From a virus (taxonomy: Duplodnaviria > Caudoviricetes): a stretch of DNA of 64,000 bases. The position numbers and the translations under genes are program-made. The stretch is taken from IMG/VR virus record IMGVR_UViG_3300014059_000006, positions 32,001-96,000 of that record; one strand, 5' to 3'. The notes under the pieces are model-generated. The model was not told the origin of the DNA. It saw nothing but the letters and a program-made list of their open reading frames with translations, and ran no database searches. This document shows, piece by piece, positions 12,077 to 53,874 of the stretch (the first letter of the stretch is position 1; each line of letters opens with the position of its first letter).

Positions 12077-12118
12077 AAATGCGGAGGAGAACGAAAAACT
12101 TCTCCGCATTTTTATTTT
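12077..12118 (+). terminator. Rho-independent terminator
   Basis: AAATGCGGAG...CTCCGCATTT stem followed by a T-rich tract. Confidence 0.8.
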
Positions 12119-12126
12119 AAACTAAC

Positions 12127-12669: not shown

Positions 12670-12690
12670 AACATTAAAAATAAAACTGAT

Positions 12691-13094: not shown

Positions 13095-13099
13095 ACAAA

Positions 13100-15037: not shown

Positions 15038-15066
15038 TAAATAAAACTTTAATTTAAAATAAAATA

Positions 15067-19320: not shown

Positions 19321-20177
19321 TGATAACTAAATATACTACTCAATATAAAACTTTTGAAAGTTTGATGGCTGATATAGAAGATGATTTAACTTCATTTTCT
19401 AATGAGACTTATGTATATTCTGACAAATACATTAAGATTGTACAAACTTGCAATAGTAAACTTTCAACTAAAATTAATCCAATTAAGGAAGATGTTATAA
19501 CGGTTACAAATAAAAAAGGAAAACTTCCTAAAGATTTTAAAGTGTTGGAACAAGTGTATGCCTGTGCCCCCACCACTATAATACAGTCTACATTGAATTT
19601 TAATAAAGAGGTTTGTCCTGCATATACTTTTTCAGAAGTACGTAACTGTTGTAATAATATTGCATACATAGAAGACCCTAGAAAGTTATTTAGTTTCGTG
19701 GTGTACAAACAAGAAATAAAATCTCTAGTTAATGTCACTAGATTGTTTCCTGTTTCTATAATTAACTCTTTAAAATTCTGTAGTGCAAATTGCCCTACAA
19801 GAGCAACTACAAATATCCAGATACAAATAGAAAGACAAGGAGATGATTTTTATATTCTCTCTGATTATGATGGGGAATTCTATATTTCCTATGTTTCTGA
19901 AATGGTGGACGACGAAGGAAATCTTTTAATTTTAGACCATCCTTTAGTAATACCATATTATGAATACGCAATTAAAGAACGCATATTTGAAGATGTGTGG
20001 CTTAATGATTTATTACAAGTTCAGAATAAACTTTCATATTTAAAAGAGAGTTTGAGAACTGCACAAATGGACGCATTACGTTTTGTTAGAACTTCTGATT
20101 TTGCAGAACTAAAACAAGTTTATTTTGATAACAGAAAAAGATTTAAAATGAAATACAACGATATTATACAAGAGTAA
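19320..20177 (+). CDS. Tail tubular / ring protein
   Basis: GKLPKDF and YISY...DDEGNLLILDHP motifs; immediately before the muzzle gene. Confidence 0.6.
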   Translation: MITKYTTQYKTFESLMADIEDDLTSFSNETYVYSDKYIKIVQTCNSKLSTKINPIKEDVITVTNKKGKLPKDFKVLEQVYACAPTTIIQSTLNFNKEVCPAYTFSEVRNCCNNIAYIEDPRKLFSFVVYKQEIKSLVNVTRLFPVSIINSLKFCSANCPTRATTNIQIQIERQGDDFYILSDYDGEFYISYVSEMVDDEGNLLILDHPLVIPYYEYAIKERIFEDVWLNDLLQVQNKLSYLKESLRTAQMDALRFVRTSDFAELKQVYFDNRKRFKMKYNDIIQE

Positions 20178-30126: not shown

Positions 30127-33100
30127 ATGCCAGATAATTTTTCGTCGTTTGCCAATAAAGTGGCACCTGTGACTTCTACCCCTTCTCGTTTAGGGACTGA
30201 AGGACTGGTAGCATGGAAAGATACAAACGCATCAAGATATACTAACGACCCTAATTGGAAAATGTTAGGGTATGACATGAACCGTAATAATGATTATGCG
30301 TACGATGTTGCTCAGACTTCGGGTCAATGGGCTAGTAGTGCTTTTAATAGATTTTTACACCCATTAAAAACTTCTTTTGTTGAAGGATTTCGTTATGATA
30401 AAACCGCTAAGGAATTATTGTTTAGTGGTAGTGTTGCCGAAGATGAAGGATTGAGAGAGTATTTAAAAAAATCTGAAGAACTTAGTTATTTATATCCTAC
30501 ATACGATAATCCTAATTCTAGTGACGAAGGGTTCTTCTCATATTTCAATGCGGGAGCTAGAAATAAATGGTCAACATTATTAGAAAGTTCTGGATTTATG
30601 GTGGGTACTGCGGGAGCAGGTATCGCACAATCTATTGTTTTAGGGCTTGTTACTGGTGGTGCGGGAACTGTTGCTTCGTTGGCTAAAACTGCAGACGCAA
30701 CCGGTAAAGCATACCGACTTTCCAAATTAGCCTCTGCCTATAAACAAATGGATAAGGTGAATGATTTGTGGAAAATGAGTAAAGTGGGAAAACTTGTAGG
30801 AGCTTCTCCCACATTACAAGCAATAGACGGATTGACAGATATCGCTAAAGCTAGAACACTCTCTCAATATGCAAAAGCATCTGGGAAATTCTTAGGAAAT
30901 AGTGCAATCAGATTTCAAGCTACTTCTAGTGAAGCAATGTTAGAAGCTATCGAAGGTTCAGAACATTTCAAAAAACAACAGATAGAACAGTTCGAATTAA
31001 AAAATGGAAGAGAAGCGACCAAGGAAGAAAAAGACGATATTGAAAATTACGCAGCAGATGTTTTCTCAGCTCGTTATCGTGCTAACTTAGGAGTGTTATC
31101 TGTTACAAATTTAGTACAGGATTTAAGTTTCTTTAATACTTATAAGTATATTTCGAAATTAGGAAAGAGTGGAGCAATAGCAGAAGAAGCTGCAAAAAAA
31201 TGGAATTGGAATGCTAAGGCTGGAATAGCTATGAAACATTCTGCACTCCCTCTTAAAGAGCGTGCCTTATTTGAAATAAAAGCTGTTGGTAATTCTTTTT
31301 TCAAAAACGCATTTATGGAAGGTGTAGAAGAAGGAGCGCAGTACGCAATAGGTAAATCTACAGATGATTATTATACTAAAAAATATAATAAAGAATCTGC
31401 TTCTTTTATGGATAGTATGGCTAGAGGAATTTCTTCTACATTCTTAGACAAAGAAGGTAAAGAAAGTTTTTGGAGTGGTATTATGATGGGCGGGTTGTTT
31501 TCAACAATAGGTAAAGGGGCTAAAACTGTTCATGGTATGGCTACAGGAAAAGGAGCAAAGATTGATGCTATGGTTTCTGAACAAATGACCAATTATAATC
31601 AAGCTCATAAAAACCTTATTGAAACATTTAAAACAGAACAAGTACTTTCAGCAGAAGCAGAAAACGGAACACTTAACCATGTGAACAATACTTTAGTCGA
31701 AGAGGCATTAGAAAATAATGACTTAGATAAAGCAAAAGAATTACGTTTACAATCATTAAGAAATTCAGTAAAAACTGCAAAAGAAGTTGGTAAGTTAGAC
31801 CTTCTTAAAAAAAGTTTATCAGAATATGGAGAATTACAAGACGATGTATTCAGAGAAAAATTTGGGGTAACTTCTAAACAAACCAATAAAGAAATTGTTA
31901 ATGAAACATTAAGAGAAATTGAAGAAATAGAAAAAACAGTGGATGCTGTTAACGAACGTTATGGTAATCCTTATGATGGGTATGATAATATAGACCCAAT
32001 AACAGCAGCAGACAAACGTGCAGAACAACATAATCTATACAAAGGATATGAGGAAGCCAAGATGACTGTTATAGACAATGTTGAAACATTAAAAGAATCT
32101 AAAAAGAATTTATCAAAGATTTCAGAATGGTTTACAGGACAGGGAGTAGTTGTAGAAGATGTATTATTAGAACTTGTTCCTGAACAGATTACATTAGGTG
32201 GGGTTGAGTTTGATAGTGCAGTTTTAGCTAGAGATGAAAAAATAGAAAATCTAGGTAGACAATTTGCAGATTTAGAAAAATTAAAACAAACCTCTACTAA
32301 TACAAGTGAAATTATAAGAGTAACACAAACTCAAGCAGAACTTTTAAAAGAACGAGATATATATGTAAATCTCAATAACAACCCTGATAGTTTAGGAGCA
32401 ATATTAGACTACTTTAATTTTCAAATAGGAAAATCTAAAAAAGGTCTTCCGATAGATGCGACAGATTCTACAGAATTCAAGACATCATTAGAAGAAAATA
32501 TAAAAGGACTGAGAGATAATTTAGAGAAATCTAAAAATGCTTTAGAAGCTTTAGACGCTTTAGAAAAACCTAAAGTGTTTGAGGCATTAGCTAAAGACTA
32601 TGCAAAAGCGTATGATAAACGTTATGGTCAAATTATAAGTGATTTAGATGCAAACGAACAGGAAGCAAAAGCGGCAACAGAAGAAGTTGTTCCTGAAGAA
32701 ACCCCCGAAGAAACAATCGGGACACCTGTGACACCAGAATCTCCTGTAGAAACTGCTACACCGATAGAACCCGAAGAAGGACCGATGTTTCCTATTCCTC
32801 CTTATACTCCTAAAGAAAGTACAAAGCCACAACCAAAACACGTACTATTACAAAAAATAGTACAAGTGGAAAAAGAATTAGATGAGATAACACACGTTAC
32901 AAATTCTCTTCTTTCTACAAAGGTTAGACTGACTAATTTATTACAAAAGGAAATTGCCGAATTAAAACCAGTGTTAGAAAAACTTGCTCGTACTGTTGTT
33001 GATAGTAACACAATGTACTTTATTTCTAACTATGAAGAATTGAGAGATGCTGAAATTCGTCTACAAGCTGATGTTGATAAGTTGACTGATGAATTAAATA

Positions 33101-36100
33101 TTGTTAGTGAAGAATTAGCTAGAGTAGAAAAAGTTCGTGATTATATAAGAAACAAGCTTACATACTACAATCAATTAAGAAAAGAACCGGGTATACGTTC
33201 TGTAAATTATGAAAATATTATATACGGAAAAATCCAATTGTTAGAAACAAAATTAAAGTTTCTAACAAGTTTAATCAATAAAGTTAAAAAAGCGATTAGT
33301 CGTATGATGGATGACTTACGTTATGTTACTGCACAACTAAGACAAAATGAAGCAGACATAATAAGCTATCCGTTAGATACCGAAGTTGATGCTGACTTAA
33401 CCACAAACAGAGAAAAACGTGCACCTTTACAACAAGAATTTACAAAACAAAAAAATAGAGTGAAGGCCCTTTCACGTACTGTAGAAAATACAAAAGATAC
33501 AATTGAGTATTTATATGATTTACTAGAGTGGGGAGAAAGAACTAATTCTGAAGAAATCGATACACCAATAGAAGAAATCAAAGCTCCAAAATTACAAACT
33601 CTAACAGATAATATTTCCAACGAAGAAAAAGAAAAATTAATAGAATCTAAAGAAGAACAGATAAAAAAAATAGATGAGTTAATACAACAAAAAACTGACG
33701 AAGTTTTAGGTGCTGACGGGGTTATAGCCGAAATCGAAAAAGAAGAAAGCTCTGCAACTCCTAATCAAGCACGTCTACAAGTGTTGTACGAGAAGCGTGA
33801 TAAGTTACAAAAAGAAACTGCAGCACTCGCTACAAAAAAAGAAATAGTTAAGAATAGATTTGGAAAAGAAATAGTAAAGGAGGAAAAATATATAATTGAT
33901 TCCCAAGACCAAGTACAGAATACATTAAAAGAAGATTTAGATGTATCTTCTAAAATTGTAAAGAGTGTTTACCTATCAGGACTACATTATGTTCAAACAG
34001 AAGATGGTAAATATTATGTTGTTCCAAATGTGTCAGAAGGTTCTAATGGTATAACATCTAAAGAAGTGACACAAGCTGAAATTATAAAACCTTTCAGAAC
34101 AAAAAAAGAATGGGACGAATTAGAAGTTAAAAAAGCTGATATAGAAAGAAGAAGACAAGAAGAATTAAACAATATAAAAAGTAAAGCAGAAATTGAAAAG
34201 TATTTTGCTAATAAATTTAAGAATGAATTCCCAAATGGAGTAAATGAAAGTGGTATTATTTCAATTCAAGAAGTATTAGAAAAATTACTTAATGAAGATG
34301 AACATAAACTTATTGAACAGTATAGATATTCAAATATACTTAAAGATAAAATCAATGCTAAATATGATGCAGAATATGTAGATGCTGTTAAGAAAGGAGA
34401 GATGACTAAAGAGCAAGCTATGCAAGCTCTTAAAGAAGTAGGAAGAAAAGATAGCAAAGCTTATGCTGAACTAGCTGCTTTAGAAGCTAAACCTGCTGTT
34501 ACACCTTCTGTTTCTGATAAGAAAGCTGAAATAGAAAAGAAAGCATACTTATTAAGTAAAGATTATAAAGATTTTGGTTGGCTAACAGAACAAGAAAAAA
34601 ACGACTATACAGAATCTCAAAACAATTCAAAAAACAGAGAAGAAAGAGAAAAAGCCTATATAAAATTAAGAGAATTATATAAGTTAAAAGTAGATAAAGA
34701 GTTTATAGATAGTATAGAAAAAGTACATTGGGTTAGAAATATTGAATCATTAATATCATTACTAGAAAAAGGAAAAAAAATACCTTTTGAAATATCAGCT
34801 GAGGGATACTTGAATGAGTCTTTTAAAAGTGGATGGGGTAATGGGGTAGGCATTAAACTAAAAGGTGAAACATTAATTGCATCTAATGAAGATTTAAGAA
34901 GTGATAACAAGTATGGTAGTATAGAAAACGGAGATTTTAGAAAATATTCATACGGAGACAATACATCCATAATATTAAATAAAGACACTTTTTTACCGCA
35001 CAGATTATTAGAATTTGAACAACGAGGTAAAAAATATCAAGGACACAATGAATTTTTATTAAAAAATAGTGAAATAGAAGCTATTGTTATTGACCCAACC
35101 AATGAAAAATTAACAGAAGAGTTTAAATCAGAGGTTGAGAATATAGCTAGAAAATTTGGAATACCTATAATTGTAAATACTAAATACGATGCTGAACTAG
35201 CTGCTTCAGAAGGCACTTCTACTCAAGCTCCTACAACAGCTACTGTTTCTAATATAGAAGCTAAAAAAGAAGATATAGAAAAAAGAAGACAAGAAATAAT
35301 ATCTAAATATAATATAGAGTTTAAGGAAATAGCTAGAAAACAATACGATAAGGTTTCTAAAAAATATATTGATGGTATATCTACTCAAATATGGAGTAAT
35401 GGTAAATTAATAGCAGAATATGAAACAAAAATAGAAGCAGAAAATGAACTAAATAGAAAAATAGATGCTTTAATAAATAACACTATTGATTCAAAAATTT
35501 CATTAGGAGATAATATTTTCATAGAAGGGATAACTGTTGATGGTAATACCTTTTCTGTTTTAAATACTTCTGAAAGAATGGTAACTATTGTTGACATAGG
35601 AGGTGTCAAAGTGCCCTTTTATTTAACAACAGGTTTGGGAGGTAAAAATTTAACACCTGCTTGGTATCCTATGTTTGGATATTCTCCTAGTGGATGGTTA
35701 AATAAAACTGATGGGAAAGATATGGAGTCTTTTTACTCTAGGATTATAGGAAAAGAAGCATCAGATGTATTAAAAAAAGTATCTGAAAAATTAAATAATA
35801 AATTAGGGGTAACTCCTAACTCTATAATTGAATCAGGGATAGTAAGTAAACAACAAACACAAGAAGCTGTAAATTCAGTTTTAAATTTTACTCCTGCTGA
35901 AAATCAAAAAATAGATGCTTCTGTTGATTATAAAATAGAACTTGCAAAACTTGAAAATAATATTAAAAGTCTTGGAGAAGAAATCAATGCTAAATATGAT
36001 GCAGAACTAAAAGCATTAAAACAACAATCTAATACACCTACTCAATCTGAAATAGAAGCTAAAAAAGCTGATATAGAAAGAAGAAGACAAGAAGAATTAA

Positions 36101-38892: not shown

Positions 38893-38893
38893 A

Positions 38894-41800: not shown

Positions 41801-44800
41801 AGTGGTGATTTTGTATCTACTATTTTCAACACTGATAAAGAAACTAACAATTTACATAATGTATTTGCAGGATATTTAAAATCCGAAATGGAACGTATTT
41901 TTAAAGTGCGTATGTTAGAGAAATCTGGAAATAATGAGTTCATAGATAAAAAGATTTCTGGTACAGAACGTAAACGTTTACAAGGATTTATTTTATTTGA
42001 CAAACTTCTTTCTGTAGATGTTAAAAATGCATTATATGAAAAAATTGAACAAATAGTTAATTCTAAAGAAGCAAATTTATATGCCGAAAAAGGTAATTAC
42101 CAAGGAGGATTAGAAGTTTTACTAGATGAAATGATTTCAACTCCTGTATTTGTAGAAGAAATTAATAAAAATGTTTCTCGTCTTAATCCTGAAATAACTT
42201 TAAGTATTGCCACATATCTAGACCAATCTACGCAAGATTATGAAAAGCGTATGATTGAAAAAGGATATATTAAAAATACATTAGGTAAGTTTCTTCCTTC
42301 GTCTTTGTCGGTTGATGATACTTCTGTTATAAGAACTTTTATTTTAAATCAGTTTATACATAACGTAGAGCAATCTAAATTGATTTATGGAGACCCTGCG
42401 TTTTACACTGCACCATTTAAACGTCTTCCGATGTTTACTTCTACAGGAGCGATGCCAAACGTAAGTGCAGAACATATTGCTCAAATGAATAATGATGTTA
42501 ATCTAAATGCATACACAAAAGCATTAGGATATAATTCTATTCCTTTTTCAGACAAAGTTAAAAGTACTGTACTAAGTGATGTTGAGTTAGATACAAAAGT
42601 TTCTGATAGATGGAAAAAAGCATTTGAAATTTTAAAAATGACTCCAGAAGCAATTGAAAAATTAACTTCAGACTATTCTGATGTTAACGAAGCGGATGCT
42701 CAGGGTATGGCAACTATTGATTTTTATAGAAGTTTTAAAAAGTCAATAGGATTTTGGTACGATTCTCACGAGAATGCGTATAACAAAATGGTGGAATACG
42801 AAAAGAGTAAAAAAGAATTTGGTAAAAATCCTACAAAAAATCAAATAAAACAATTAGAAGGGTTACGTTTAACTGCAGAAGAAGAAGGACTATTCCCGCC
42901 TATTAAGTTGGGATATGGTGGTCCATTAGTAAATGAACACTTATATGCTCCGACATATCATAAGTTTTCTATTTACCCAATTCTTCCTTCTATGACCGAA
43001 GAAAATAATAACTTGAATAAAATCAACAGAAAACTTCTAAGAGAAGGAATAAGTTATTTAACATTTGAGTCGGCAAGTAAAGTGGCAAATACAGGAAAGA
43101 ATGGAAAATTCCAACCTTTATATTCTGATGTTGCTACAAGAACATTAAATGATGCTAAATTTCATCCTACAGTTACGTTATTAAAATATTATAAAGAACA
43201 ATTACAAATAGAACCAAAAGATGAAAGAAGTATGACTTTTGGTACACAGTTCCGTAAACTTTTGTTTTCTAACTTATATGAACACGGATATCCTACAGAT
43301 TTCGTTTCTACCTCTCCTGAATCAGATTGGGATAGAATGTCTGAAGAAGAACGAATTAATGCATCAGAGATACATAAGAATCATCAGGGATACCTTAAAG
43401 TGTTAAATAATGTTGCCGAAATTGAATTAGAAAAGTTATTAGAAGAAATTGGAGGAACACAAAATTCAAACGGTGAAATCGTAATAAATGATTTTAGGAA
43501 ATTAAAAGACATGGTGATTAACGAAGCTAAAAAGAAAGAAGCTCCTGATTCACTAGAATATTTTTTCCAAATCAACGAAGATGGGTCATTAAAATACCCT
43601 ATTGAAACTTCTAAAGATAAAAAAATCATACAAGATATTCTTTTATCTCTTGTAAACAATCGTCTTGTTAGATTAAAAATCAATGGTGCAAATCTTGTTC
43701 AAGCTGCACAAACCGGTCATGAACGTTATGATGGAAAAACCTATTCTGACACATTAGAAGGATACAGGGTTGAAACAACTCCTGAAGGTAAGTTTATATT
43801 ACGTCCTATGGAAGTGGAAGTTTCATTTAACAACTCTTATAGAGGTACATTAAAACTTATTCATCCTGACGGTAAAGTTGTTAAAACAGTTAAACGTTTG
43901 AATGAAGCTATGCGTAATGCTGAGTGGTACGAAACCCATAAAGATTATTTTTCTTTAGTTGGATATAGGATTCCTACACAAAGTACAAACTCAATTGCGT
44001 ACATGGGAATTAAACAATTTCTTCCTAAAAACTCTATGAACTTAATTGTACTTCCTTCTGAAATTACAAAAATTGCAGGTTCGGATTTTGATATTGACAA
44101 GATGTCTGTAATACGTCCATACTTTAATAAACGTGGAGAAATACTTAGACCATCTGAATTAAATCTGTCACGTGCAGAACTGAAAGAAAATATTGCAGAA
44201 CTAGAAGAAGAATTGACAGATTTAAGAAATTCTAAAAAACGTTTTAAAGGTGATGTAAATAAAGCTCTATCAAAAATACAAGACCAAACCGCAACAGTTT
44301 CTGATTGGGCAATTTATAAATATAACACTGAAGAAACATCTCAGAAATTAGAAGTTCTATTAGACGAAGAAGAAGAAATTTTAAATCTTATAGATAATAG
44401 TTATGATTCTGATATGGCAGAACTATTCCAAAAATCAGGACTAGTACAACAAACAGAAAAAAATGAAGAACAAGATACATCTTCTTTAGAAGCAAAACTT
44501 AACTATGTACAGAAACAAATAGATAAGATTTCAGAATTTGCCGAAACAATGAACTCTTATGTAGATGATTATAATGCGCTTCCTGAAGAAACTATTTCAG
44601 CAATTGAAACAGAACTAGAAGGATATATGGAATGGTTTGCTCAATTGGATGAGAAACGTATAAAATTAGAAGATTTAAAAGATGCGTACGCACATCAAAA
44701 AGAAGCACAATTTAATAATTTATTAGACATTGCGAAAAACTCCATAAGTAGAGAAGATAAATTTATAGACTTGGTTACACCTAACTCTGTAGATATAGTA

Positions 44801-47272
44801 AAGAAACAATTAGCCGACCCTATTAAAGAATGGTTAACTGTGTCAGGACAAGAAAGTTTTGCTCAAGAAAGTAATACTACAGATATTTTTAATCCTGCAT
44901 ATGAAGACGAGGTATATGAATCTTTCTTACAAGGAAAATCTACATTAGGAATCGCAGCACTTGCTGGACCATTGTCACAAATTTTCCAACGTACCGGTGC
45001 TTATGTAAACCCTGTGTATCATTTGAATAAACAACAGTATGACACCGTTGTATTGTTAAATACAAACAAAAGAGAAATTAGTAGAAGGGGTGAAACAATA
45101 ACAGTTTATGACTTAGCATCTAGATACGATAGTGAAGGAAAAATATTAAAATCAGAACTCATTGCTCAGTATATAAATGCATATGTGGATATCGCGAAAG
45201 AACCTTTTGTGTTCTATATGAACGCAGGTATTAACGTGGCACCTGTTATGATGTATATGACACATTTAGGAGTACCTGCAAAACAATCAGCTTACTTGGT
45301 GAATCAACCTTCTATACGTGATTATATTAAACGTAAATCTGTTCAGGCATCTTATACTAACAGATATACAAACGAAATGTCTAAAAAAGAAGAATACACA
45401 AAAATGCATTCTTTAATAGAAACATTTAATAAATTTGTAATAGGTGACGAAAACATAAAAGACATTGGAGAGTATATAACAATCAATCCTAAAAACAACC
45501 AAATACGTAAAATAGATTTTGGTAGAATTTATGAAGAGTTTAATACATATTTAAAAAATAATGCTCCACAATATGAAAAACTTCTTTCACAAGAAAACCT
45601 TGAAAAAAATATAAAAGGAGAACTATCCGAAGAAGAAAGTAAAAATACATCTATGGCTGCATTTTTACAATACACAATGTTGGAAAATCAGTCAGCGTCT
45701 TTAAGAGAAATAAATGATGTATTGAAGTCTGATACGACAATGTCAAAAAGTACAACTTCTGCCGTTCAACATACTAAAAAAGTTCAACAATATAAAAACA
45801 ATAAAATACAAGGGATACTTCCTGCAGAAGTAATATCTAAAATATTATCTTCTACAGAAATAACTCCATATGTTGTTCAACCTAAAATTGCAAGTATGTA
45901 TTCAGGAATAGAAAAAGTTCAAAACCATCCCGTAATTCAACAACACTTGGATGAACTTTTAAATATGGGTAGAACTAAAAAATCTCCGGTAATACAAGAG
46001 AAAATCATTAAAGATTATTTTAGTGATTTAAATTCCTTTATTTTACAAAATCACGGAGTTCAATTTAATGAAACTAAAAATACTCCTAGAACATTAGATT
46101 CTTTATGGCCCTTGATGATTAATGATAAATCAAAACGTCTAAAGAAAAATAAAGAACTGTATAAAAAAGAAATAAAGAATATTGTTACACGTTTAAATGA
46201 TTTACATGCTAAATACAATGGGGTAAATTCACCTATAAATCTTCGTACAAGATATCAAATCTTTAACGGATTAAAGGTTTATAATAGTGAGGAAACAAAT
46301 TTACGTTCTATTGCTTGGCAAGGTGAACCATTGAAAAAAGATTTAATCAATATGCTTTCAGAAGAATGGACAAAATTAGCAAACTTGAACGACCCTAAAT
46401 TTGCGGATATAAAAGAATTTATGATTGACTTAGCTAAGGTGGTGTTTTTAACTCATGGAGAAACTCGTTCGTCTAAATCATTTTTTGCTCTAGTTCCTTC
46501 TGAATTACACACATCGTTTATGCTACCCTTTATTGAAGATTTCCTTTCTGAAATGAATGTCGTAGGGTCAAACTATTACCAATTGTTTACAAAATTTTTC
46601 AATGATGATTTCATGGGAAATAATAAACAGTATTTCAAAGGTAGAGGAACTGACAAAATAAATGATGGAAGATTTAAACAGTACAGAAGGGATTCTTCTT
46701 TTGCTAGAGATTATATTTTAACTGCACATCCTAAAGTAGAAAAAATTAAACGTGAATTTGTTTCCGACCCTATGGAAAGTGGAGACGAAAGAAATGATAA
46801 TGAAACAGTAAGTAAGATTAATTTCAAACCAACTCCGGCAGAACAAGATTTAATGTCCGAGGTGGAATCTATCCTTTCTCAATCAGACATGTCAAAATTT
46901 GAACCACAAGTAAGAGAAACATCTATGGATGAAAAATATGAATACTTCAAAAGTTTAAATAAAAATACCCTGACAAAAAAAGAATTAACAGGTGTGAATA
47001 ATGTTATTGACGTATTACAAAAATATAAAGTGATACAACAAGATAAATTGAGGGCCAGTATACCTGTCACTCCGACGTTTAACCCTGACTTTTTCCAATC
47101 GGTCGACAGTTTGTTCCAAACTGATTTCTCAGTGGATTTGGCAATGTCAAAAATAAAAGTTAACTTTGAAGAGTATAAAGACGCTTTAAAGGAAGAAGGA
47201 ATTAATTCTATAGAAGAATTGGAATCCTATCCAGATAAAAATAATTTTGTTTTAAAAATTTGTAAATTATAA
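38894..47272 (+). CDS. Virion-packaged single-chain DNA-dependent RNA polymerase (crAss-like) with N-terminal zincin protease domain, 2792 aa
   Basis: Catalytic GSDFDIDK (DFDIDK at 44084-44101), upstream GYRIPTQ, DAQG, FESASKV and GTQFRKL motifs, downstream LGIAA and YVDIAK; HEAWH (39212-39226) plus EEHLAD zincin motif. Confidence 0.9.
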   Translation: MANNCLYKYNGVLYTEPEFKQLLNSNLLQFVYSLDSADINNILDPAFQFMEQDETSWINTIFKTSYPKEIQDRVKFLYTVVNSNKWGTWGPAGITLYKSSARGTGYHEAWHEFSQMFLTKDEKISLYKEAIVNIPALKDLNYKKLNDLRQIEEHLADDFMKYMLNDELFGDSLLVNRQPVRNSIFRIILNFLKGLFGVNKQNEDVFLNRLNTLYSNLRNGELDNYQFSVDNILFNEQLHRKIEGFDNLSAVLKNKSEVGTMMKVMGHFDALITEVIKNKQVELTKLFADPKLKVYVYTHVKNRLKQELKTVRLSPEAVEMREFILANFGEFVKAHDEKGSLKFAISDVSDIENVIKILDSNDDINNDNEEDDDHVDNSSSGRDKAWDKSGNEEDSKDIASKIIRFMVASLHNRRFATPEEQKQGKKKLEEYRQSRLQGVEDNETMLAINDEVDKLEEENNYRYISDALGLKELVNFNTVWNMLQTELQGMDNYSDMYRKIEALSVDKVYLLDLLKLLPSPNKEVYTQDESHISNRFRTDFMRVKNPILINSMVVERNEEGDVKQVRIDLLSANKLGIKTVRETFYQKWLETKSAKENFVTEKDDEIIFDFDKFAETFYGKDGDENFKNIYLFKNAESLSEEFGEGKIDKIYNNRITFLNAFGFIFSDQTVKTQEFKDFIMNRVFMEDQLGKYLFNDIANLIEYRKKEGAFIIDNLAPGTSKSDREKALETLPIIKNPLDFFRTKRVFRYSDRSIKNPVILNGNSNKMDELYNFEILHSGQYFNEATYTATQKIQFENSIYNTFFMYLNGLNDAVKYPTYQSLVAEGSPYEYNYNIDRNPHLRSSIWFNSMFELDVPEGTPRYGKRRIQRIKKQGLVNKTNHVTVDFVNLSGMSINDRTANNFEGQNTVKLETLDRMISSISSLLTTGTSELMRHADKSMAYGIRPTSMFINGSYTGDKNIFFELKSDLTSGDFVSTIFNTDKETNNLHNVFAGYLKSEMERIFKVRMLEKSGNNEFIDKKISGTERKRLQGFILFDKLLSVDVKNALYEKIEQIVNSKEANLYAEKGNYQGGLEVLLDEMISTPVFVEEINKNVSRLNPEITLSIATYLDQSTQDYEKRMIEKGYIKNTLGKFLPSSLSVDDTSVIRTFILNQFIHNVEQSKLIYGDPAFYTAPFKRLPMFTSTGAMPNVSAEHIAQMNNDVNLNAYTKALGYNSIPFSDKVKSTVLSDVELDTKVSDRWKKAFEILKMTPEAIEKLTSDYSDVNEADAQGMATIDFYRSFKKSIGFWYDSHENAYNKMVEYEKSKKEFGKNPTKNQIKQLEGLRLTAEEEGLFPPIKLGYGGPLVNEHLYAPTYHKFSIYPILPSMTEENNNLNKINRKLLREGISYLTFESASKVANTGKNGKFQPLYSDVATRTLNDAKFHPTVTLLKYYKEQLQIEPKDERSMTFGTQFRKLLFSNLYEHGYPTDFVSTSPESDWDRMSEEERINASEIHKNHQGYLKVLNNVAEIELEKLLEEIGGTQNSNGEIVINDFRKLKDMVINEAKKKEAPDSLEYFFQINEDGSLKYPIETSKDKKIIQDILLSLVNNRLVRLKINGANLVQAAQTGHERYDGKTYSDTLEGYRVETTPEGKFILRPMEVEVSFNNSYRGTLKLIHPDGKVVKTVKRLNEAMRNAEWYETHKDYFSLVGYRIPTQSTNSIAYMGIKQFLPKNSMNLIVLPSEITKIAGSDFDIDKMSVIRPYFNKRGEILRPSELNLSRAELKENIAELEEELTDLRNSKKRFKGDVNKALSKIQDQTATVSDWAIYKYNTEETSQKLEVLLDEEEEILNLIDNSYDSDMAELFQKSGLVQQTEKNEEQDTSSLEAKLNYVQKQIDKISEFAETMNSYVDDYNALPEETISAIETELEGYMEWFAQLDEKRIKLEDLKDAYAHQKEAQFNNLLDIAKNSISREDKFIDLVTPNSVDIVKKQLADPIKEWLTVSGQESFAQESNTTDIFNPAYEDEVYESFLQGKSTLGIAALAGPLSQIFQRTGAYVNPVYHLNKQQYDTVVLLNTNKREISRRGETITVYDLASRYDSEGKILKSELIAQYINAYVDIAKEPFVFYMNAGINVAPVMMYMTHLGVPAKQSAYLVNQPSIRDYIKRKSVQASYTNRYTNEMSKKEEYTKMHSLIETFNKFVIGDENIKDIGEYITINPKNNQIRKIDFGRIYEEFNTYLKNNAPQYEKLLSQENLEKNIKGELSEEESKNTSMAAFLQYTMLENQSASLREINDVLKSDTTMSKSTTSAVQHTKKVQQYKNNKIQGILPAEVISKILSSTEITPYVVQPKIASMYSGIEKVQNHPVIQQHLDELLNMGRTKKSPVIQEKIIKDYFSDLNSFILQNHGVQFNETKNTPRTLDSLWPLMINDKSKRLKKNKELYKKEIKNIVTRLNDLHAKYNGVNSPINLRTRYQIFNGLKVYNSEETNLRSIAWQGEPLKKDLINMLSEEWTKLANLNDPKFADIKEFMIDLAKVVFLTHGETRSSKSFFALVPSELHTSFMLPFIEDFLSEMNVVGSNYYQLFTKFFNDDFMGNNKQYFKGRGTDKINDGRFKQYRRDSSFARDYILTAHPKVEKIKREFVSDPMESGDERNDNETVSKINFKPTPAEQDLMSEVESILSQSDMSKFEPQVRETSMDEKYEYFKSLNKNTLTKKELTGVNNVIDVLQKYKVIQQDKLRASIPVTPTFNPDFFQSVDSLFQTDFSVDLAMSKIKVNFEEYKDALKEEGINSIEELESYPDKNNFVLKICKL

Positions 47273-47275
47273 AAA

Positions 47276-47752
47276 ATGTTAGACTCAAAAATAATCGAAC
47301 TCCTAAATTATAGGATTGAACAAGAACAACTTTCTTCTCGTATTTATGAACAAATGTCAATGTTCTTAGGGAATAAGGGATATGTAAACACTGCGAAACT
47401 GTATGCAAAGTATGCATCAGAAGAATTAAGTCATGCTGAATGGGCTAAAACCTATCTTCTTTCTTATAACATAGAACCAGAACTACATCCCCTTCCTGCA
47501 CCTACAACAGAGTATTCAACATTACAGGAGGTGTTAGATTTAACATTAGAACATGAAATGGATATTACTAAACAATGTAACGAGTTAGCAAGAATTGCAC
47601 AAGAAATGGCATACTTCACATGTTTTGATTTAGCTCTTAAATACTGTAGAGAACAAGTGGAAGAAATAGATAAGGCATATACATTGAAAGATATGTATGC
47701 ACTTTCTAATAATGACTTGTTATTTGACCACGCTGTAGAAGACCTTATATAA
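47276..47752 (+). CDS. Non-heme ferritin (FtnA-like)
   Basis: LLN-x-x-I-x-x-E-x-x-SS-x-x-Y-x-x-MS, EE-x-x-HA, LEHE-x-x-IT and EQVEE ferroxidase-centre pattern; 158 aa. Confidence 0.85.
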   Translation: MLDSKIIELLNYRIEQEQLSSRIYEQMSMFLGNKGYVNTAKLYAKYASEELSHAEWAKTYLLSYNIEPELHPLPAPTTEYSTLQEVLDLTLEHEMDITKQCNELARIAQEMAYFTCFDLALKYCREQVEEIDKAYTLKDMYALSNNDLLFDHAVEDLI

Positions 47753-48528
47753 TGAAGTTTTGTCCACTCGTTTCCCTTCCTGATTGGATTGAATTAGAAA
47801 AAATTCATGGGAAAGCTCGCGCTGCAAATTTATGGGTGGCGTTTGACGGTTATCCTCCAAAATATTTATACACGGATTTACGTACAATACCGGTTGATAC
47901 AAAACATAGTAGATATAAAATACTTAAATCAGCATTTGGTAGTGACGGATTAGTTGAAGATTTGATTAAAGGATTTTCTATAGGACTGGGAAAAGGAAAA
48001 GGAGAACTGTATTATCCTACAATTAATGAAGTGAAGAAATATTTTGCAGATAATCGTGATTCTACAGAAAATTATATTAAAACTATTTTAGAGAGATTTC
48101 CCGAGGTTTCAGCAAAAGGACTTGCTCGTGTGTTAAATACAGTTGTTAATGAAACAGGAGACATGTATATGGTGTCTAGAGGATGGATTAATAATGGGTC
48201 GTTAGTGGGAAAAGGAATTGTAGAAAAAGAATTTTATGGACGTAATTTGGCAACAATGAAAAAACTTGCTGAATTATATCCTCAACGATTTGAAATAAAA
48301 GATTCTAAAAAGAACAAGTACTCACACTTTGTCACAATAAATGAACCGGTTTTACAACAACAATTATTCAATAGAATTGAAATACTAACTATAAATAATG
48401 AAATACTTCAGCCTAAGGTTGAAGAAATTGAAACAACATTAGAAACGAACATACAAAGCGATAATGATACATTTTTTGTAAAAAATGCTGATAAAATAGA
48501 TAGTGGTGAAATAATTATAGAATGTTAA
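47752..48528 (+). CDS. Hypothetical cargo-cluster protein with terminal cysteines (MKFCP...IIIEC)
   Basis: 258-aa ORF coupled to the ferritin gene; its only two Cys are residue 4 and the last residue. Confidence 0.6.
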   Translation: MKFCPLVSLPDWIELEKIHGKARAANLWVAFDGYPPKYLYTDLRTIPVDTKHSRYKILKSAFGSDGLVEDLIKGFSIGLGKGKGELYYPTINEVKKYFADNRDSTENYIKTILERFPEVSAKGLARVLNTVVNETGDMYMVSRGWINNGSLVGKGIVEKEFYGRNLATMKKLAELYPQRFEIKDSKKNKYSHFVTINEPVLQQQLFNRIEILTINNEILQPKVEEIETTLETNIQSDNDTFFVKNADKIDSGEIIIEC

Positions 48529-48550
48529 AAATAAAACAAAACAAAATAAA

Positions 48551-51500
48551 ATGAATACTTGCGAAAGAAAAGTGGTGTCCACTGATGAAACTGGTTTTAG
48601 TTATGAAGAAACTATAGCTCAGTATGAAGAAAGAAAACGCCTTTTAGTAGAAGCTAATAAAGAAACAACATTACAAAACAATATTGACAGTATTCGTCAA
48701 GATAATGTAAAGGACACTATATTAACTACAATATTTGATAACATCACTAAAATATCTTCTAAAGGATTAAAGGACGAAAGTGTACGTAAACTTGCCGAAT
48801 CAAATGAAGATTTTCAAGATACAATAGAAATGTTACGTAAATCCAACCTTAACATTAAAAATAAGGTAATTAACAAGGCACGTTTCTTATTTAATACGGC
48901 AACCACTTATACAAAAGTGGGGGAATATTATGAAAAAAGAATAAATGAAATCCTATCTTTAGTAGATAATGGACAAATGGAAGGTTCAATTGCTTTTGAA
49001 GAAATGAGTCAAATGGCTTCTTTTTATGAGAGTATGTCAAAATTAGCAAATACAATTGAAAAAGATTTGTTAGCGTTGGGGTTATCTCCTGAAGAACCTA
49101 TTTTTTCAGAGTTCAAACGTGTAGACACAATAAATGAAAATATAAACATTAAACGAAGAAACTTTAACGTTAAATACTATATAGGAGATTTGTTTAGTAA
49201 TATTGACGAAAACAATGTAGAAGAACGATTTAAAGATTATACTAAGAGTATAAAGTTCCAGTTGGAACGTGCTGAAAAAAAAGGACGTAAATTAGAAGCA
49301 AATCGTCTTAAAGAATTATTATCTCGTTTACAAACTATTAAACCATCGAAAGAAAATTTAGAAGCGGTGTTTAAAGGAGAAAGAGATGATATGAATAAAT
49401 TAGATTTTTGGTTTAATGCTCTCCTTAGAAGTTCTGATACTGTTGTATCTTCATTTCGTCTTAAACTGACAAACTTGGTAGCTAAAGTAAAAGCCAACAG
49501 TGTTATGAAGGCTCCAGCATTTACGAAAGCTTTTGAAGACTATGTAGGAGAAACAGGCGAAACAAGAACCAATTTAAAAAATCTTTACAAAGGTGTTTAT
49601 ACACAATATAAAACATACAAATACAATTTTGCCACTAAAGAAATAGAGGCTACAGATGCAGTGCGTTTAAATGTATGGTGGGATGAATCTGCATATTCTC
49701 TTGCTGTAGCAACATGGCAAAAAGAAATAGAAGAATTTGAAGAAGGTTCAGAAGCAAAACAAAAGAAACGCAGAGAGTATTGGGATTGGCTTGCACAAAA
49801 TGTTCAACAAGCCTATACTGATGAAGTTACAGAGGCGTATGATGGAATGAGTGAGGAAGCAAAAGAAGTTCTTCAAAATGCTAATGAAGAAGTGAGTTTT
49901 GCACGTATGACTCTTGACGAATATTATACAATAGAAAACGAAGCTGCATACGATAGAGCAATTCATATACAAAAAAATCTACGTTATGAAAATGATATCG
50001 ATGGAAATAAAAAAGGACCAAAAGAATTAAAAATAGCTAAAGAAATAAATGAGTTTTATTTAAAACGTAAAGAATTTTACATTCCTATTTCAGAAGATGA
50101 ATTAGAAGAGGCTACCAAAGAGGCACAAAGAAAAAAAGATAAAGATTTCTCTAAATTAGAAATCTTAATTAGTAAGATGCAACAACGTGGAGATTCTCAA
50201 GAAAAAATAAATAGTGTTACAAAACTATGGAAAAAGAAAAATGAAAGACGAGTTGTAGATAAATCTTATACAGAACGTGTACAAGCAATTAACGACCGTC
50301 TGTCAGAAATACAAAAAGAATTCTTTAACCCTGGCGAAAAGGAAACTATAAATGAATTATGGGATAAAATAAGAAACACTGTAAGAAAATACAGAGATGA
50401 TAATGGAAAAATACAAGGAGAATATTTAACCGAAGGTGAAATAAATAATATTGTCGCATGGAGACAAGAAATTGATTCTCTAAAAATGGAAGCCGTTGGT
50501 GTAAGTGGTATGTCCATAAACGATAAACGTAATTTCACTTCATTAATCGATAGATACAGTATTCCTAAATTTAACAAAGAAACTGATAAATACTATGCCA
50601 ATTATATTTCAAAGGTGGTTGATTTAATTAAAGCTAAGGGAACTGTTGAAGAAGCTAGATTTGCAGAGTATTATAAAAAAGAACATCAGAAAGCAAACGA
50701 AAATAAAAAGAATGCCAATCTGTCTATGACAGAAGAAGAAATTGCATATTACAAAACTCTCAAAGAAGAAAGAAATAGTTTATATGCGGAATTAGAAACA
50801 TTACAGAGTAAAGAAACCACAGAGAATTATGCAAATGAATATCAACGTCAATTAGATTTATTTATTGCAAGAGAACGTGAAAAAACCGGAGCAACCGGTA
50901 TACTAACAGAAGAAATAAAATCTTTTTATAATACACAATTTAAAGAACTTTCTCCTTGGTACAAAACAAACCACACTAAAGTACAGAAGTTCAATAAAGA
51001 AAGTATGAGATGGCAAGAAGTTGTTGAACCTATTTATATATGGCAAGAAATCCTACCTCGTGATAAGGCTATGATAAAAACATTTCCTGCGTATCATTAC
51101 TATGAACGTAAATTCAAACCTGAATATGTAAACGATAAACAAGAAATGAATCCGTTTGATAATGAAAAAGCATTACCAAAACGAGGAGGAATATTCGATA
51201 AAAAAGACGAGTTTTTTAAAAAAGAAAACGAAAACAAACCTAAACAAAAACTTTGGAAATTCTATTTTGACACATACGTAGAAGCTCAAAAAGATATAGA
51301 ATCTAGTTTACGTCCTGGTACAAGACTTCCTGCATTCGAAAAAGAAGGGATAGATAGAATAACAGAAAAAGGATTTAGTCATATATGGGAGGGAATAAAA
51401 AGACAATTTGGTAGAACAGAATTAGATACAGACGAAGGGATAGGATTAAAAGAAAATGATTTTAAAAAAATGTTCAATGTTATTCCTGTATTACATATGG

Positions 51501-53164
51501 GAAATGTAGACATAGAAAACTTTAACTTTGACCTATTGGGAGGACTACAAAAATTTGTACATAGTGTAGATATGAGAAAAGAATTTGTTAATGTTCTTTC
51601 TTATTCTAAAGGATTGATGGAGGCATTGGGAGAAGATGAAACGACATTGGCTAATCAAGAACGTGGTCTCTTTGCACAATTTAATTTATTTAATTCTTCT
51701 AAAGCACTTAACGTTAACAAAAATATACGTTTAGATGCAATTGTAGAAACTATTAAAACTGTTCTATTTAATGAATATAAAAAAGAAGAACGTATGGGTG
51801 CGTTAGATATTCAAAAATGGGTGGGAAACATGAACAAGTTTTCAGCAATAAACACTCTTACATGGAATATACCGAGTGCTATGGTGAATATGTTATCAGG
51901 TAGAACACAAATAATGATAGAATCTATGGCAGGTAGACTTTTTAATTACCAAGATTATCTAAAAGGACAAGTGGAATATTCTAAAAGAATGTCTACATAT
52001 ATAAATGATGGTATGAAATTAGATTTTGGTAGATTCTCTCCTGAAAGTAAAATGTTATTGACATGGGGAGTTATGGCAGGGGGATTTGAAGAAAAATTAG
52101 GAAAAGGATTTTCAAAAACTAAACTAAAGAATTTAGTTGGTTCGGGTTTTTATGGTTCTTATTTACGTGAATCTACAGAACATCATGTCCAAGTAACAGT
52201 TTGGTTGACAGCATTGAAAAAGAAACACGTAGATGTGAACGGTAAAACCATGTCTTTGTTAGACCTTTATGAGAAATTAGCAAAAGAATATGATATTTAT
52301 AGAATAGAAGATTTATATGCTAAACCCGAAATAGCCAAAAAATTTGTTATAACAAAAATTAAAGAAGGAACTCCTTGGGACCAGAAAAATGAAGATAGAC
52401 TTAGAAATAATATCCAAGGTGTAAATGCCGATTTATTTGGAGAATTTGATAAAATTAATAAAGCGGTGTTTGAAAAAACAGCATTAGGAACTGCAACTTA
52501 TTTCTTTAGGAGACATGCTATTAGAATGATATCTAATCGTTTGTCTGGAGCTTACACACCACGATACAATATTACAACAGGAAGACTTAGTCAAGGATTT
52601 TATATAACAGCATGGCATCAAATAATTAAACCTTTGTTTACATTACGATTTGATGTTATTTCCACCACTATAAGGGAAGCTGCTACTGAAGCAAGGGATT
52701 TGTCAGAAGAAGAAGTACAAAATATAAGAAGAGCTTTTGCCGAACTTTCTGCAATTTTAATATTAGCATTATTGATAATGGCATTGGGTGGAGATGATGA
52801 TGAAGATATGAAAGACAAATCTTTTATGACATTGTATATGTTATATTTTTCAAAGAAAGTAAAGTCTGAAACAGAACAATTTGTTCCCATCCCATTCTTA
52901 GGATTTAATGAAATTATAAACACAGCTAAAAATCCGTCAATAGGTTTTAGTCAATTGGCAAGTTATAACAGAATATTTAATGATGTTCGTTATATTATGA
53001 CCGGTGATGAAAAAGCTGAAATGAGAGCTGATAGGGGATTTTGGGAAAAAGGTGATTCTAAACTTTTAAGAGATGCTTTAAAATTAACAACAGGGTTCAC
53101 AGGTAATACTTGGCACCCTGAAGTACTTAACACAAGTTTTGATTATGCTCAAAACCCACGATAA
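48551..53164 (+). CDS. Large cargo/ejection protein with C-terminal transmembrane-like helix, 1537 aa
   Basis: Helical; hydrophobic AFAELSAILILALLIMALGG segment; single Cys at residue 4. Confidence 0.65.
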   Translation: MNTCERKVVSTDETGFSYEETIAQYEERKRLLVEANKETTLQNNIDSIRQDNVKDTILTTIFDNITKISSKGLKDESVRKLAESNEDFQDTIEMLRKSNLNIKNKVINKARFLFNTATTYTKVGEYYEKRINEILSLVDNGQMEGSIAFEEMSQMASFYESMSKLANTIEKDLLALGLSPEEPIFSEFKRVDTINENINIKRRNFNVKYYIGDLFSNIDENNVEERFKDYTKSIKFQLERAEKKGRKLEANRLKELLSRLQTIKPSKENLEAVFKGERDDMNKLDFWFNALLRSSDTVVSSFRLKLTNLVAKVKANSVMKAPAFTKAFEDYVGETGETRTNLKNLYKGVYTQYKTYKYNFATKEIEATDAVRLNVWWDESAYSLAVATWQKEIEEFEEGSEAKQKKRREYWDWLAQNVQQAYTDEVTEAYDGMSEEAKEVLQNANEEVSFARMTLDEYYTIENEAAYDRAIHIQKNLRYENDIDGNKKGPKELKIAKEINEFYLKRKEFYIPISEDELEEATKEAQRKKDKDFSKLEILISKMQQRGDSQEKINSVTKLWKKKNERRVVDKSYTERVQAINDRLSEIQKEFFNPGEKETINELWDKIRNTVRKYRDDNGKIQGEYLTEGEINNIVAWRQEIDSLKMEAVGVSGMSINDKRNFTSLIDRYSIPKFNKETDKYYANYISKVVDLIKAKGTVEEARFAEYYKKEHQKANENKKNANLSMTEEEIAYYKTLKEERNSLYAELETLQSKETTENYANEYQRQLDLFIAREREKTGATGILTEEIKSFYNTQFKELSPWYKTNHTKVQKFNKESMRWQEVVEPIYIWQEILPRDKAMIKTFPAYHYYERKFKPEYVNDKQEMNPFDNEKALPKRGGIFDKKDEFFKKENENKPKQKLWKFYFDTYVEAQKDIESSLRPGTRLPAFEKEGIDRITEKGFSHIWEGIKRQFGRTELDTDEGIGLKENDFKKMFNVIPVLHMGNVDIENFNFDLLGGLQKFVHSVDMRKEFVNVLSYSKGLMEALGEDETTLANQERGLFAQFNLFNSSKALNVNKNIRLDAIVETIKTVLFNEYKKEERMGALDIQKWVGNMNKFSAINTLTWNIPSAMVNMLSGRTQIMIESMAGRLFNYQDYLKGQVEYSKRMSTYINDGMKLDFGRFSPESKMLLTWGVMAGGFEEKLGKGFSKTKLKNLVGSGFYGSYLRESTEHHVQVTVWLTALKKKHVDVNGKTMSLLDLYEKLAKEYDIYRIEDLYAKPEIAKKFVITKIKEGTPWDQKNEDRLRNNIQGVNADLFGEFDKINKAVFEKTALGTATYFFRRHAIRMISNRLSGAYTPRYNITTGRLSQGFYITAWHQIIKPLFTLRFDVISTTIREAATEARDLSEEEVQNIRRAFAELSAILILALLIMALGGDDDEDMKDKSFMTLYMLYFSKKVKSETEQFVPIPFLGFNEIINTAKNPSIGFSQLASYNRIFNDVRYIMTGDEKAEMRADRGFWEKGDSKLLRDALKLTTGFTGNTWHPEVLNTSFDYAQNPR

Positions 53165-53220: not shown

Positions 53221-53874
53221 ATGAATCTATACAAATATACACCATATGCAATAGCGTTACTTTTGTTAACGCTATTGGTGCTTTTATTCGGGTCCACTGC
53301 TAATTTAAGAAAACAAGTGGATTCTTTACAAACAGAAAAAGACCTAATTAATCAACAGTTTAAATCAGAAAAAAATAAGAATGGTGAACTTATTACATTA
53401 CAAGATATAATTGTAACAAACGATAAAAAAATTATGGATTCATTGGTGCAAGAAATAAATTGGGGAAAACAAAAAATTAAAAACCCCAAGACAATAATAA
53501 AAGAAACATTAGTGACAAAAATTGATTCTCTTTATGTTCCCTTCACTGATACACTTATAACTATTGTAGGGGCAAAATATGAATTTAAAGATTCCACTCC
53601 CTTTTATAATCTCTCAGGAACGGTGGAATCAAAAGGAATTAAATTTAATACCATTTCATTTATAAATGAAAATACATACGTAATAAACAAAAAAAGATAT
53701 AATGTATTTTATACTAAACCTGTTTTATACGTAAACACCAAAAATCCATACACAACCGTTACTGGATTAAAATCTATAACGTTAGAAAAACAACCTAATA
53801 AACTATTAAAATTTTTAACAGTATCTGCCTCTTTTGCTTTAGGAGCTTACGTCGGTATACAAATTTCAAAATAA
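53221..53874 (+). CDS. Membrane-anchored coiled-coil protein, possibly spanin-like lysis accessory
   Basis: N-terminal TM helix (AIALLLLTLLVLLFG), coiled coil, second hydrophobic helix at the C-terminus. Confidence 0.45.
   Translation: MNLYKYTPYAIALLLLTLLVLLFGSTANLRKQVDSLQTEKDLINQQFKSEKNKNGELITLQDIIVTNDKKIMDSLVQEINWGKQKIKNPKTIIKETLVTKIDSLYVPFTDTLITIVGAKYEFKDSTPFYNLSGTVESKGIKFNTISFINENTYVINKKRYNVFYTKPVLYVNTKNPYTTVTGLKSITLEKQPNKLLKFLTVSASFALGAYVGIQISK

Follow-up and report, generated by a model that had tools for sequence, protein, structure and literature searches.

Why would four phage proteins that add up to 7508 residues retain only six cysteines, and retain each of them at an end that faces a neighboring protein? 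The question is raised by a 64,000-nt stretch (hereafter the window) of the 107.9 kb phage record IMGVR_UViG_3300014059_000006, in which four open reading frames (ORFs) encode the RNA polymerase (RNAP) cargo block of a divergent crAss-like phage, with the last cargo protein split in two. We translated the four ORFs for a cysteine count and refer to their products as chain members 1 to 4. Taken as a whole, the reading that we favor, with a rough probability of 65%, is that the four proteins are tied end to end by disulfides into one unbranched thread.

Cysteines are confined to the facing ends of the cargo proteins

All four genes lie on the plus strand. Member 1 (30127–38892; 2921 aa, 329.5 kDa) has a sole cysteine, Cys2919 (codon 38881–38883), at position −3 from the C-terminus (ending EKICKF), and none at its N-terminus. 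Member 2, the virion RNAP (38894–47272; 2792 aa, 322.7 kDa), starts with MANNC and ends with KICKL; its only cysteines are Cys5 (codon 38906–38908) and Cys2790 (−3; codon 47261–47263). Member 3, a small link protein (47752–48528; 258 aa, 29.5 kDa), likewise contains two, Cys4 (codon 47761–47763) and Cys258, its last residue (codon 48523–48525). The last protein, member 4 (48551–53164; 1537 aa, 179.6 kDa), has Cys4 alone (codon 48560–48562), with none at the C-terminus. In gene order the topology reads (−,C)(N,C)(N,C)(N,−), and the cysteines at the three junctions stand at −3/5, −3/4 and −1/4 (upstream/downstream).

The recount on the translations agreed exactly with what an earlier note had read from the DNA: six cysteines, all within five residues of an end, none internal, and distributed with a first/middle/middle/last asymmetry. 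The note had also read the four proteins, whose summed mass is 861 kDa, as a linear chain in gene order. Their order stands, but strict contiguity does not, as a 158-aa ferritin-like ORF had been omitted. The chain is encoded in four ORFs, each with its own stop codon and set apart by short gaps, not in a single ORF for a fused RNAP polyprotein.

Cysteine accounts for 0.08% of the residues in the four chain proteins, compared with 1.43% in the other ORFs of the 107.9 kb record; at the genome rate, about 107 would be expected in 7508 residues, versus the six observed. The frequency lies far under the level of the phage proteome, the kind of depletion associated with ejection proteins. If the six cysteines were placed uniformly, the probability that all fall in the 40 end positions would be (40/7508)^6, or approximately 2e-14. 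Elsewhere in the genome, end-proximal cysteines occur only in cysteine-rich proteins, and no other cysteine-poor protein has a terminal one. The terminal-cysteine observation in the window is thereby confirmed.

As a separate observation at the DNA level, the last seven codons of member 1 (38872–38892, plus strand; AAAAATTTGTAAATTTTAA) and of the RNAP (47252–47272, plus strand; AAAAATTTGTAAATTATAA) are nearly the same. The near-identical KICKF and KICKL ends suggest that one C-terminal tail was copied onto the other.

The terminal cysteines are conserved in homologues

The earlier note had proposed tabulating cysteines across relatives; this tabulation returned the same first/middle/last asymmetry, with the terminal cysteines conserved in homologues. 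For the RNAP, we collected 120 homologues at approximately 25% identity, comprising 422,578 residues. They contain 261 cysteines, 200 of which are terminal: a cysteine lies within the last 8 residues in 119 of the 120 sequences and at position 3, 4 or 5 in 81. The 61 internal cysteines correspond to a frequency of 0.014%. The 39 homologues that have no N-terminal cysteine are longer (median 4014 aa vs 3326 aa), and many of them begin with MPD or MPE, like member 1. A 15-sequence RNAP alignment (24% mean identity) has C5 and C2790 among its invariant columns, together with D1731, F1732, D1733 and D1735; judged from this alignment, the cysteine rule is conserved as strongly as the RNAP catalytic motif. 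The conservation of the terminal cysteines is far beyond chance.

The other members were examined in the same manner. The 258-aa protein alone, used as a query, found no relative in viral contigs. Among 27 representatives of its family, an N-terminal cysteine (positions 3–8) is present in all 27; short members also have a C-terminal cysteine at −1 to −3, and long ones mostly have the N-terminal cysteine only. Several of the long members are fused to the last protein, among them P0123 and P0134, which hold 258-like and 1537-like regions in one chain; in other lineages, unbroken last proteins begin with the folded domain of the 258-aa protein. Most of the 29 homologues of member 1 have a single cysteine at −1 to −6, nine have no cysteine at all, and an N-terminal cysteine occurs in one exception (P0161). 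For the 1537-aa protein, the homologue search returned four sequences, too few to tabulate, and this class was judged from the loci.

Facing cysteines occur together at gene junctions

We compiled a junction table of adjacent same-strand ORF pairs from 80 IMG/VR loci found via RNAP alignment. A C-terminal cysteine upstream is accompanied by an N-terminal cysteine downstream at 140 junctions, neither is present at 106, and only 11 junctions are discordant, with one cysteine only. Several of these 11 can be explained: L008 and L083 have genes inserted between members, the start codon was miscalled in L044, and the cysteine of L038 stands at −21. The counts support the view that the facing-end cysteines behave as pairs. 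Chains in the related loci have two, three or four members, always composed of (−,C), any number of (N,C) and then (N,−). The four-member arrangement of the window recurs in the nearest relative (L003, 36% identity), and a further locus (L004) has a two-member chain in which a 4367-aa protein (cysteine at −3) is followed by one of 1941 aa (cysteine at 4).

With respect to the inserted genes themselves, small cysteine-containing ORFs (205–229 aa) lie between chain members at L008:11711–13050 and L083:10024–10641, like the ferritin-like gene of the window.

Cysteine pairs accompany gene fission at shifting break points

Among eight RNAP homologues without an N-terminal cysteine that we aligned, three (P0005, P0017 and P0030) match both member 1 and the RNAP and are fusions of the two. 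They have a C-terminal cysteine only, save one unrelated internal cysteine in P0005, and the join in P0005 and P0017 consists of a poorly conserved linker that contains no cysteine. A single 5002-aa ORF (L033:6200–21208) also aligns to member 1 and the RNAP, with two internal cysteines and no terminal ones; about 2100 further residues lie outside the alignment and no chain gene is located 3' of the ORF, which is probably the fully fused form of the chain.

A FastTree phylogeny of the RNAP core (71 rows) requires at least 4 changes between the split and the fused state at the member 1/RNAP junction and at least 8 changes in how many members lie downstream, counts that are rough given several long branches. 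The junction counts show the cysteine pair wherever the genes are split.

The position of the break itself also shifts. The window RNAP contains a zincin-like HExxH motif (HEAWH, in the context YHEAWHEFSQ; 39212–39226, plus strand) at residues 107–111. Residues 54–164 of this protein match residues 2102–2205 of crAss001 gp47 (E 5.6e-7), in which HExxH stands at residue 2157. The motif always occurs near a chain junction: at the N-terminus of the RNAP in the window and L003, towards the C-terminus of the crAss001 first protein, and in the last protein of phi14:2 (g065, residue 245). Homology is established for the window/crAss001 pair, and the phi14:2 instance is identified by its motif. Since the HExxH domain precedes the break in crAss001 (gp47) and follows it in the window (RNAP), the two junctions lie at non-homologous positions. 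The breaks between members 1 and 2 flank the domain on opposite sides in the two lineages, and both have a cysteine pair. On these sequences, the pair is a property of a junction and not an inherited residue.

Cultured phages follow the same rule

The arrangement recurs in cultured phages. In phi14:2, g067 (1797 aa) has a cysteine at −1 only, g066 (2180 aa) at 3 and −2 only, and g065 (1421 aa) at 3 only. In crAss001, gp47 has a cysteine at −3 only, gp50 at 5, 1334 and −9, and gp49 at 5 only, with the gp50 and gp49 genes on the strand opposite to gp47. In cr118_1 (Suoliviridae), gp14 (4946 aa) has a cysteine at −4 and four internal ones and is followed by gp15, with a cysteine at 3. IAS virus is a less clear-cut case: its sequence contains Ns and its RNAP is split, with the terminal cysteines still in place. 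The reach of the rule thus includes Steigviridae, Suoliviridae and the divergent window lineage at the least.

Mass spectrometry found the crAss001 cargo proteins gp47, gp50 and gp49 in virions as separate proteins (Bayfield et al. 2023, PMC10172136), and phi14:2 gp67, gp66 and gp65 were likewise detected in virions (phi14:2 annotation; Drobysheva et al., bioRxiv 10.1101/2020.03.07.982082). The blocks of both phages resemble that of the window in their homologous proteins, their position after the tail genes and their terminal-cysteine topology. The window phage differs in having four members, with the last protein split into the 258-aa link and the 1537-aa protein, and in its ferritin-like insertion; relative to crAss001, it also differs in the side of the HExxH domain on which the break between members 1 and 2 falls.

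A disulfide with the same signature is known from a cyanopodophage

The cryo-electron microscopy (cryo-EM) structure of cyanopodophage A4 (Anabaena phage A-4L, Saffermanviridae) contains a disulfide between gp27 Cys1715 and gp26 Cys5, and the C-terminal helix of gp27 inserts into a cleft of gp26 (PNAS 2025, PMC12002296). The authors describe this bond as a stabilizer in the folded pre-ejectosome ring (PMC12002296). In the A4 genome (NC_024358), gp27 (1717 aa) has a single cysteine at −3 and gp26 (1114 aa) a single cysteine at 5. Two consecutive ejection-protein genes thus share with the window the signature −3/5, a sole cysteine at the C-terminal tip of the upstream protein facing a sole cysteine at the N-terminal tip of the downstream one, which the window junctions carry. 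BLASTP of A4 gp26–gp29 against the window proteins gave a best E of 0.22, i.e. no detectable homology, and the resemblance concerns the mechanism and not the protein family. A4 has one link, two proteins, a folded ring and no RNAP, whereas the window phage has three predicted links among four proteins of 861 kDa. Moreover, the A4 disulfide is a structural detail in its report (PMC12002296), whereas the crassvirus pattern is conserved order-wide and tied to the fission and fusion of genes.

The ejection proteins of Schitoviridae (N4 gp50 virion RNAP; DEV gp71–gp73) provide a second comparison. They are depleted of cysteine, which has been explained as avoiding unwanted disulfides during passage through the envelope (PMC11445570). 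A giant virion RNAP and partners stripped of cysteine are common to both systems, but N4 and DEV have essentially no cysteine, termini included, whereas the crassvirus cargo keeps the terminal ones. The crassvirus pattern is not a depletion that leaves no conserved cysteine at all, the terminal cysteines being invariant.

Cysteines of the cargo are unmentioned in both the crAss001 atlas (PMC10172136) and the phi14:2 RNAP preprint (bioRxiv 10.1101/2020.03.07.982082), and we found no description of terminal cysteines in crassvirus cargo in the literature searched, which did not include subscription journals. The statement in the earlier note that the pattern had not been described holds for crassviruses within that literature but not absolutely, given the A4 disulfide published in 2025 (PMC12002296). 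The disulfide chemistry and the signature are already known from one solved precedent; the multi-link chain, its order-wide conservation and its coupling to gene fission and fusion were absent from the literature that we searched.

A model for a disulfide-linked cargo thread

A tether at the junctions is well supported by the comparisons above and by analogy with A4, and is most likely a disulfide: this is the bond that cryo-EM shows for the same signature, and crassvirus particles do contain disulfides, as seen in the tail and gp57 of crAss001 (PMC10172136). For the crassviruses we infer the bond itself, its timing, ejection as a train and release by reduction, and propose the following sequence of events. 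Internal cysteines have been purged, as in other ejected phage proteins, and every end turned towards a neighbor in the chain retains one cysteine, borne on a tail that is short and flexible. The C-terminal cysteine (−1 to −7) would then pair with the N-terminal cysteine (3 to 5) of the next protein, most likely in an intermolecular disulfide that forms once the proteins are enclosed in the particle. With no more than two cysteines per protein, both at the tips, the only product would therefore be the unbranched 2921-S-S-2792-S-S-258-S-S-1537.

Such a thread would behave like the single polyprotein of some relatives, and its partners would be packaged in fixed 1:1 proportions. It could pass the narrow portal and tail in a linear, partly unfolded form, with side stubs of only a few residues per joint, and may exit N-terminus first, as has been proposed for crAss001 gp45 (PMC10172136). 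The reducing host cytoplasm would finally separate the chain and free the RNAP. The three proteins of the RNAP block are fused in some crAss-like phages and 'likely cleaved' (bioRxiv 10.1101/2020.03.07.982082); these polyproteins preserve both the domains and their order on a single backbone, and the proposed chain would be their redox-cleavable equivalent. They differ in that a peptide bond replaces the cysteine pair, the junction cysteines are absent and release would need a protease.

Structure prediction was applied to the link protein. The AlphaFold2 model of the 258-aa protein has a folded core at residues 6–209, and residues 1–5 and 210–258 have predicted local distance difference test (pLDDT) values below 50; in this model, both cysteines would reside on flexible tails, the C-terminal one 49 residues long. 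A Foldseek search of the model against the PDB gave no match with E below 0.4. Complex prediction of the C-terminal 200 residues of the RNAP with the 258-aa protein, both supplied as alignments and run without controls, yielded an ipSAE of 0.01, a value that counts neither in favor of binding nor against it. The residues preceding the C-terminal cysteine are acidic and hydrophobic, consistent with a helix.

The earlier note had put forward an ordered, disulfide-locked chain that is threaded out and released by reduction. Its linkage is favored by facing-end cysteines that come in pairs, are conserved, are coupled to gene splits and have a precedent in A4, whereas the threading and the reductive release stay at the level of proposals. 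Several points weigh against the thread that we favor. Phages assemble in a reducing cytoplasm, and many of the hosts are anaerobes. Neither a thioredoxin nor a glutaredoxin was found in the phage record, which is 88% complete; in a search of the same record for an Erv/ALR oxidase, the control matched nowhere. Internal cysteines occur in some relatives, nine in the IAS virus RNAP and one in crAss001 gp50. The related loci are not phylogenetically independent, and the long branches of the RNAP-core tree limit the event counts as noted above. The C-terminal tails are near-identical (IVEKICKF and FVLKICKL), and chain order and partner choice are therefore not obviously encoded there, which argues against docking specificity at the peptide level. 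Finally, C-to-N pairing and homotypic pairing (C-C, N-N) are inseparable by sequence alone.

Extending the disulfide-linked thread beyond the window, we suggest tentatively, and at somewhat less than even odds, that the redox-cleavable polyprotein is a general device, employed by Crassvirales and, independently of them, by at least one cyanopodophage. A giant injected protein could be divided into separate genes almost anywhere, given a cysteine per new end; its pieces would be rejoined by disulfides in the particle, threaded through the tail without branches and released by reduction.

Other explanations for the terminal cysteines

The cysteine link might serve co-packaging only: it would fix stoichiometry and keep the RNAP inactive and bundled, be broken or irrelevant before ejection, and leave the proteins to exit singly. 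The A4 disulfide sits in a static folded pre-ejectosome ring and is called a stabilizer (PMC12002296), phi14:2 gp66 was self-inhibited in its crystals, a state interpreted as the one that precedes packaging (bioRxiv 10.1101/2020.03.07.982082), and the ejection step itself is outside the reach of the tests that we ran. We nevertheless regard a tether confined to the particle as unlikely: the restriction of cysteines to the tips, which leaves minimal side stubs, and the purge of internal ones suit a thread in a narrow channel and are needless for a static clasp, and relatives with natural fusions tolerate an uninterrupted backbone at the junction.

The cysteines could also anchor the cargo, by bonding to a protein of the capsid, portal or tail or, as C-C and N-N pairs, to the same end of another copy. 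The genes are silent on which thiol meets which; crAss001 particles contain disulfides between structural proteins, in the tail and gp57, and several copies of each cargo protein are thought to be present per virion (PMC10172136). However, such bonds explain neither the cysteine-free outermost ends, N-terminal in the first protein and C-terminal in the last one, nor the joint appearance and loss of facing cysteines in the junction table, and the sole solved example, in A4, is a heterotypic C-to-N bond. Homotypic pairing or anchoring is in our judgment improbable.

A shared metal, in which two thiols and other side chains would hold Zn or Fe, had been offered in the earlier note as an alternative to the disulfide, and a ferritin-like gene does lie inside the window block. 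This clasp seems very improbable. A usual Zn site would need more cysteines than the one that each partner offers, and histidines within 12 residues of the cysteine are rare (C-terminal sides, 2 of 119; N-terminal sides, 12 of 119). The nearest relative (L003) has the same chain and no ferritin-like gene, and the A4 bond is a disulfide.

We give hardly any credence to a covalent processing site, in which the cysteines would mark thiol-dependent ligation into a polyprotein, cleavage or lipidation. It would fit the existence of fused polyprotein forms, for which cleavage has been proposed (bioRxiv 10.1101/2020.03.07.982082), and the zincin-like HExxH domain that always lies near a junction. The proteins are nonetheless separate in phi14:2 and crAss001 virions by mass spectrometry, no signal peptide or lipobox precedes the N-terminal cysteine, no intein-like blocks were seen, and the C-terminal cysteine varies from −1 to −7, unlike a CaaX-type box. 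The lipobox and CaaX readings were rejected on cysteine position and context.

Chance, base composition or a DNA-level boundary motif (e.g. TTTG in AAAATTTGTAAATT) that happens to create cysteine codons has a negligible probability: two C-terminal cysteine codons do fall within 16-base strings that are almost the same, and TTTGT contains three of the six codons. Such an origin is refuted by the conservation of the cysteines as residues of hundreds of homologous proteins, only about 25% identical, in which neither the flanking residues nor the codon contexts are related, and also by the invariant alignment columns, the junction table and the absence of cysteines at other gene boundaries of the same loci.

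Membrane-like segments and shared modules in the chain proteins

The earlier note had placed membrane-like helices towards the free ends of the two end proteins, and a Kyte-Doolittle scan (19-residue window) located both. Member 1 has a transmembrane (TM)-like segment at residues 157–175 (30595–30651, plus strand; score 1.72), near its free N-terminal end, and member 4 a strong one at residues 1395–1413 (52733–52789, plus strand; 2.38), near its free C-terminal end. The two differ in conservation: among related loci, 49 of 64 last proteins have a TM-like segment within their C-terminal 400 aa (conserved), and 6 of 63 first proteins have one within their N-terminal 400 aa (not conserved).

Within member 1, residues ~1310–2170 (34054–36591, plus strand) comprise three adjoining modules with 55–94% identity to otherwise unrelated giant cargo proteins. 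The modules stand at other positions elsewhere, e.g. in P0158 and P0161 (94% over ~160–175 aa), and gave no sequence match in Pfam or the PDB. This distribution looks like cassette shuffling of payload domains.

Identity and genomic setting of the cargo block

Member 2 had been called an RNAP in the earlier note, an assignment borne out by the catalytic motif DFDID (residues 1731–1735; 44084–44098, plus strand) and by homology to phi14:2 gp66 and crAss001 gp50 (E 1e-14 to 1e-24; tblastn and BLASTP). Member 1 is the counterpart of phi14:2 gp67 (BLAST to g067, E 2e-9), and member 4 that of phi14:2 gp65 and crAss001 gp49 (BLAST E 9e-15 to gp49 and 6e-9 to g065). PHROGs and Pfam gave no match for any of the four chain proteins, nor for the conserved modules inside member 1.

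The block sits in a crAss-type virion module. Upstream of it lie a portal (phrog_6547) and a major head protein (phrog_11589) identified with PHROGs. Crass-type tail ring proteins are encoded at 18655–20177 (plus strand), where PF25702 CrAss_Ring_2 matched with E 2.5e-17, above the cut-off, and PF24228 CrAss_Ring_1 with E 2.6e-4, below it. A collagen-like tail fiber is encoded downstream. The muzzle Pfam model had no match in the window and matched in a relative (L004).

Directly 5' of the chain, a cysteine-free 912-aa protein (27385–30123, plus strand) with no family match occupies the position of the crAss001 cargo proteins gp45/gp46. As it contains no cysteine, it is excluded from any disulfide chain; cysteine-free proteins occupy the same upstream position in related loci. 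The ferritin/Dps-like gene (47276–47752, plus strand; PF00210, E 1.5e-16; phrog_16594) is not a chain member: its 158-aa product has three internal cysteines. It begins 4 nt past the RNAP stop codon and ends in a stop codon that shares bases with the start of the 258-aa gene. L003, the nearest relative, has the four-member chain and lacks this gene.

Further neighbors were noted in passing. Directly 3' of the chain lies a cysteine-free 217-aa protein (53221–53874, plus strand) with TM-like segments at residues 9–27 and 195–213, and L003 has a cysteine-free 223-aa ORF in the matching place. Upstream of the cargo block, a 624-aa protein (25509–27383, plus strand) with no family match has only four cysteines, at residues 225, 234, 260 and 263, a cluster that may form a small metal site. 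The region that separates the head genes from the tail genes holds five ORFs in a row (9965–16680, plus strand) with 2.5–5.7% cysteine (28 in 645 aa and 20 in 537 aa, for instance), with no Pfam match, in sharp contrast to the cargo block.

Implications for crassvirus biology

Crassviruses are the most abundant phages of the human gut. How about 5 MDa of protein is packed in the particle, and how a polymerase of more than 2000 residues is delivered through a narrow tail, was an open question in the 2023 crassvirus structural atlas (PMC10172136). If the disulfide-linked thread is correct, a covalent and reversible end-to-end link would answer the questions of order, stoichiometry and release together, and would fix the order and stoichiometry with which the phage RNA polymerase is delivered. 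It would also explain why ejected proteins lose internal cysteines yet keep terminal ones, and the cysteine depletion of ejection proteins would be recast as one half of a two-part design. For annotators, the terminal-cysteine rule would offer a sequence-based means to recognize ejected cargo chains and true start codons in metagenomic phages.

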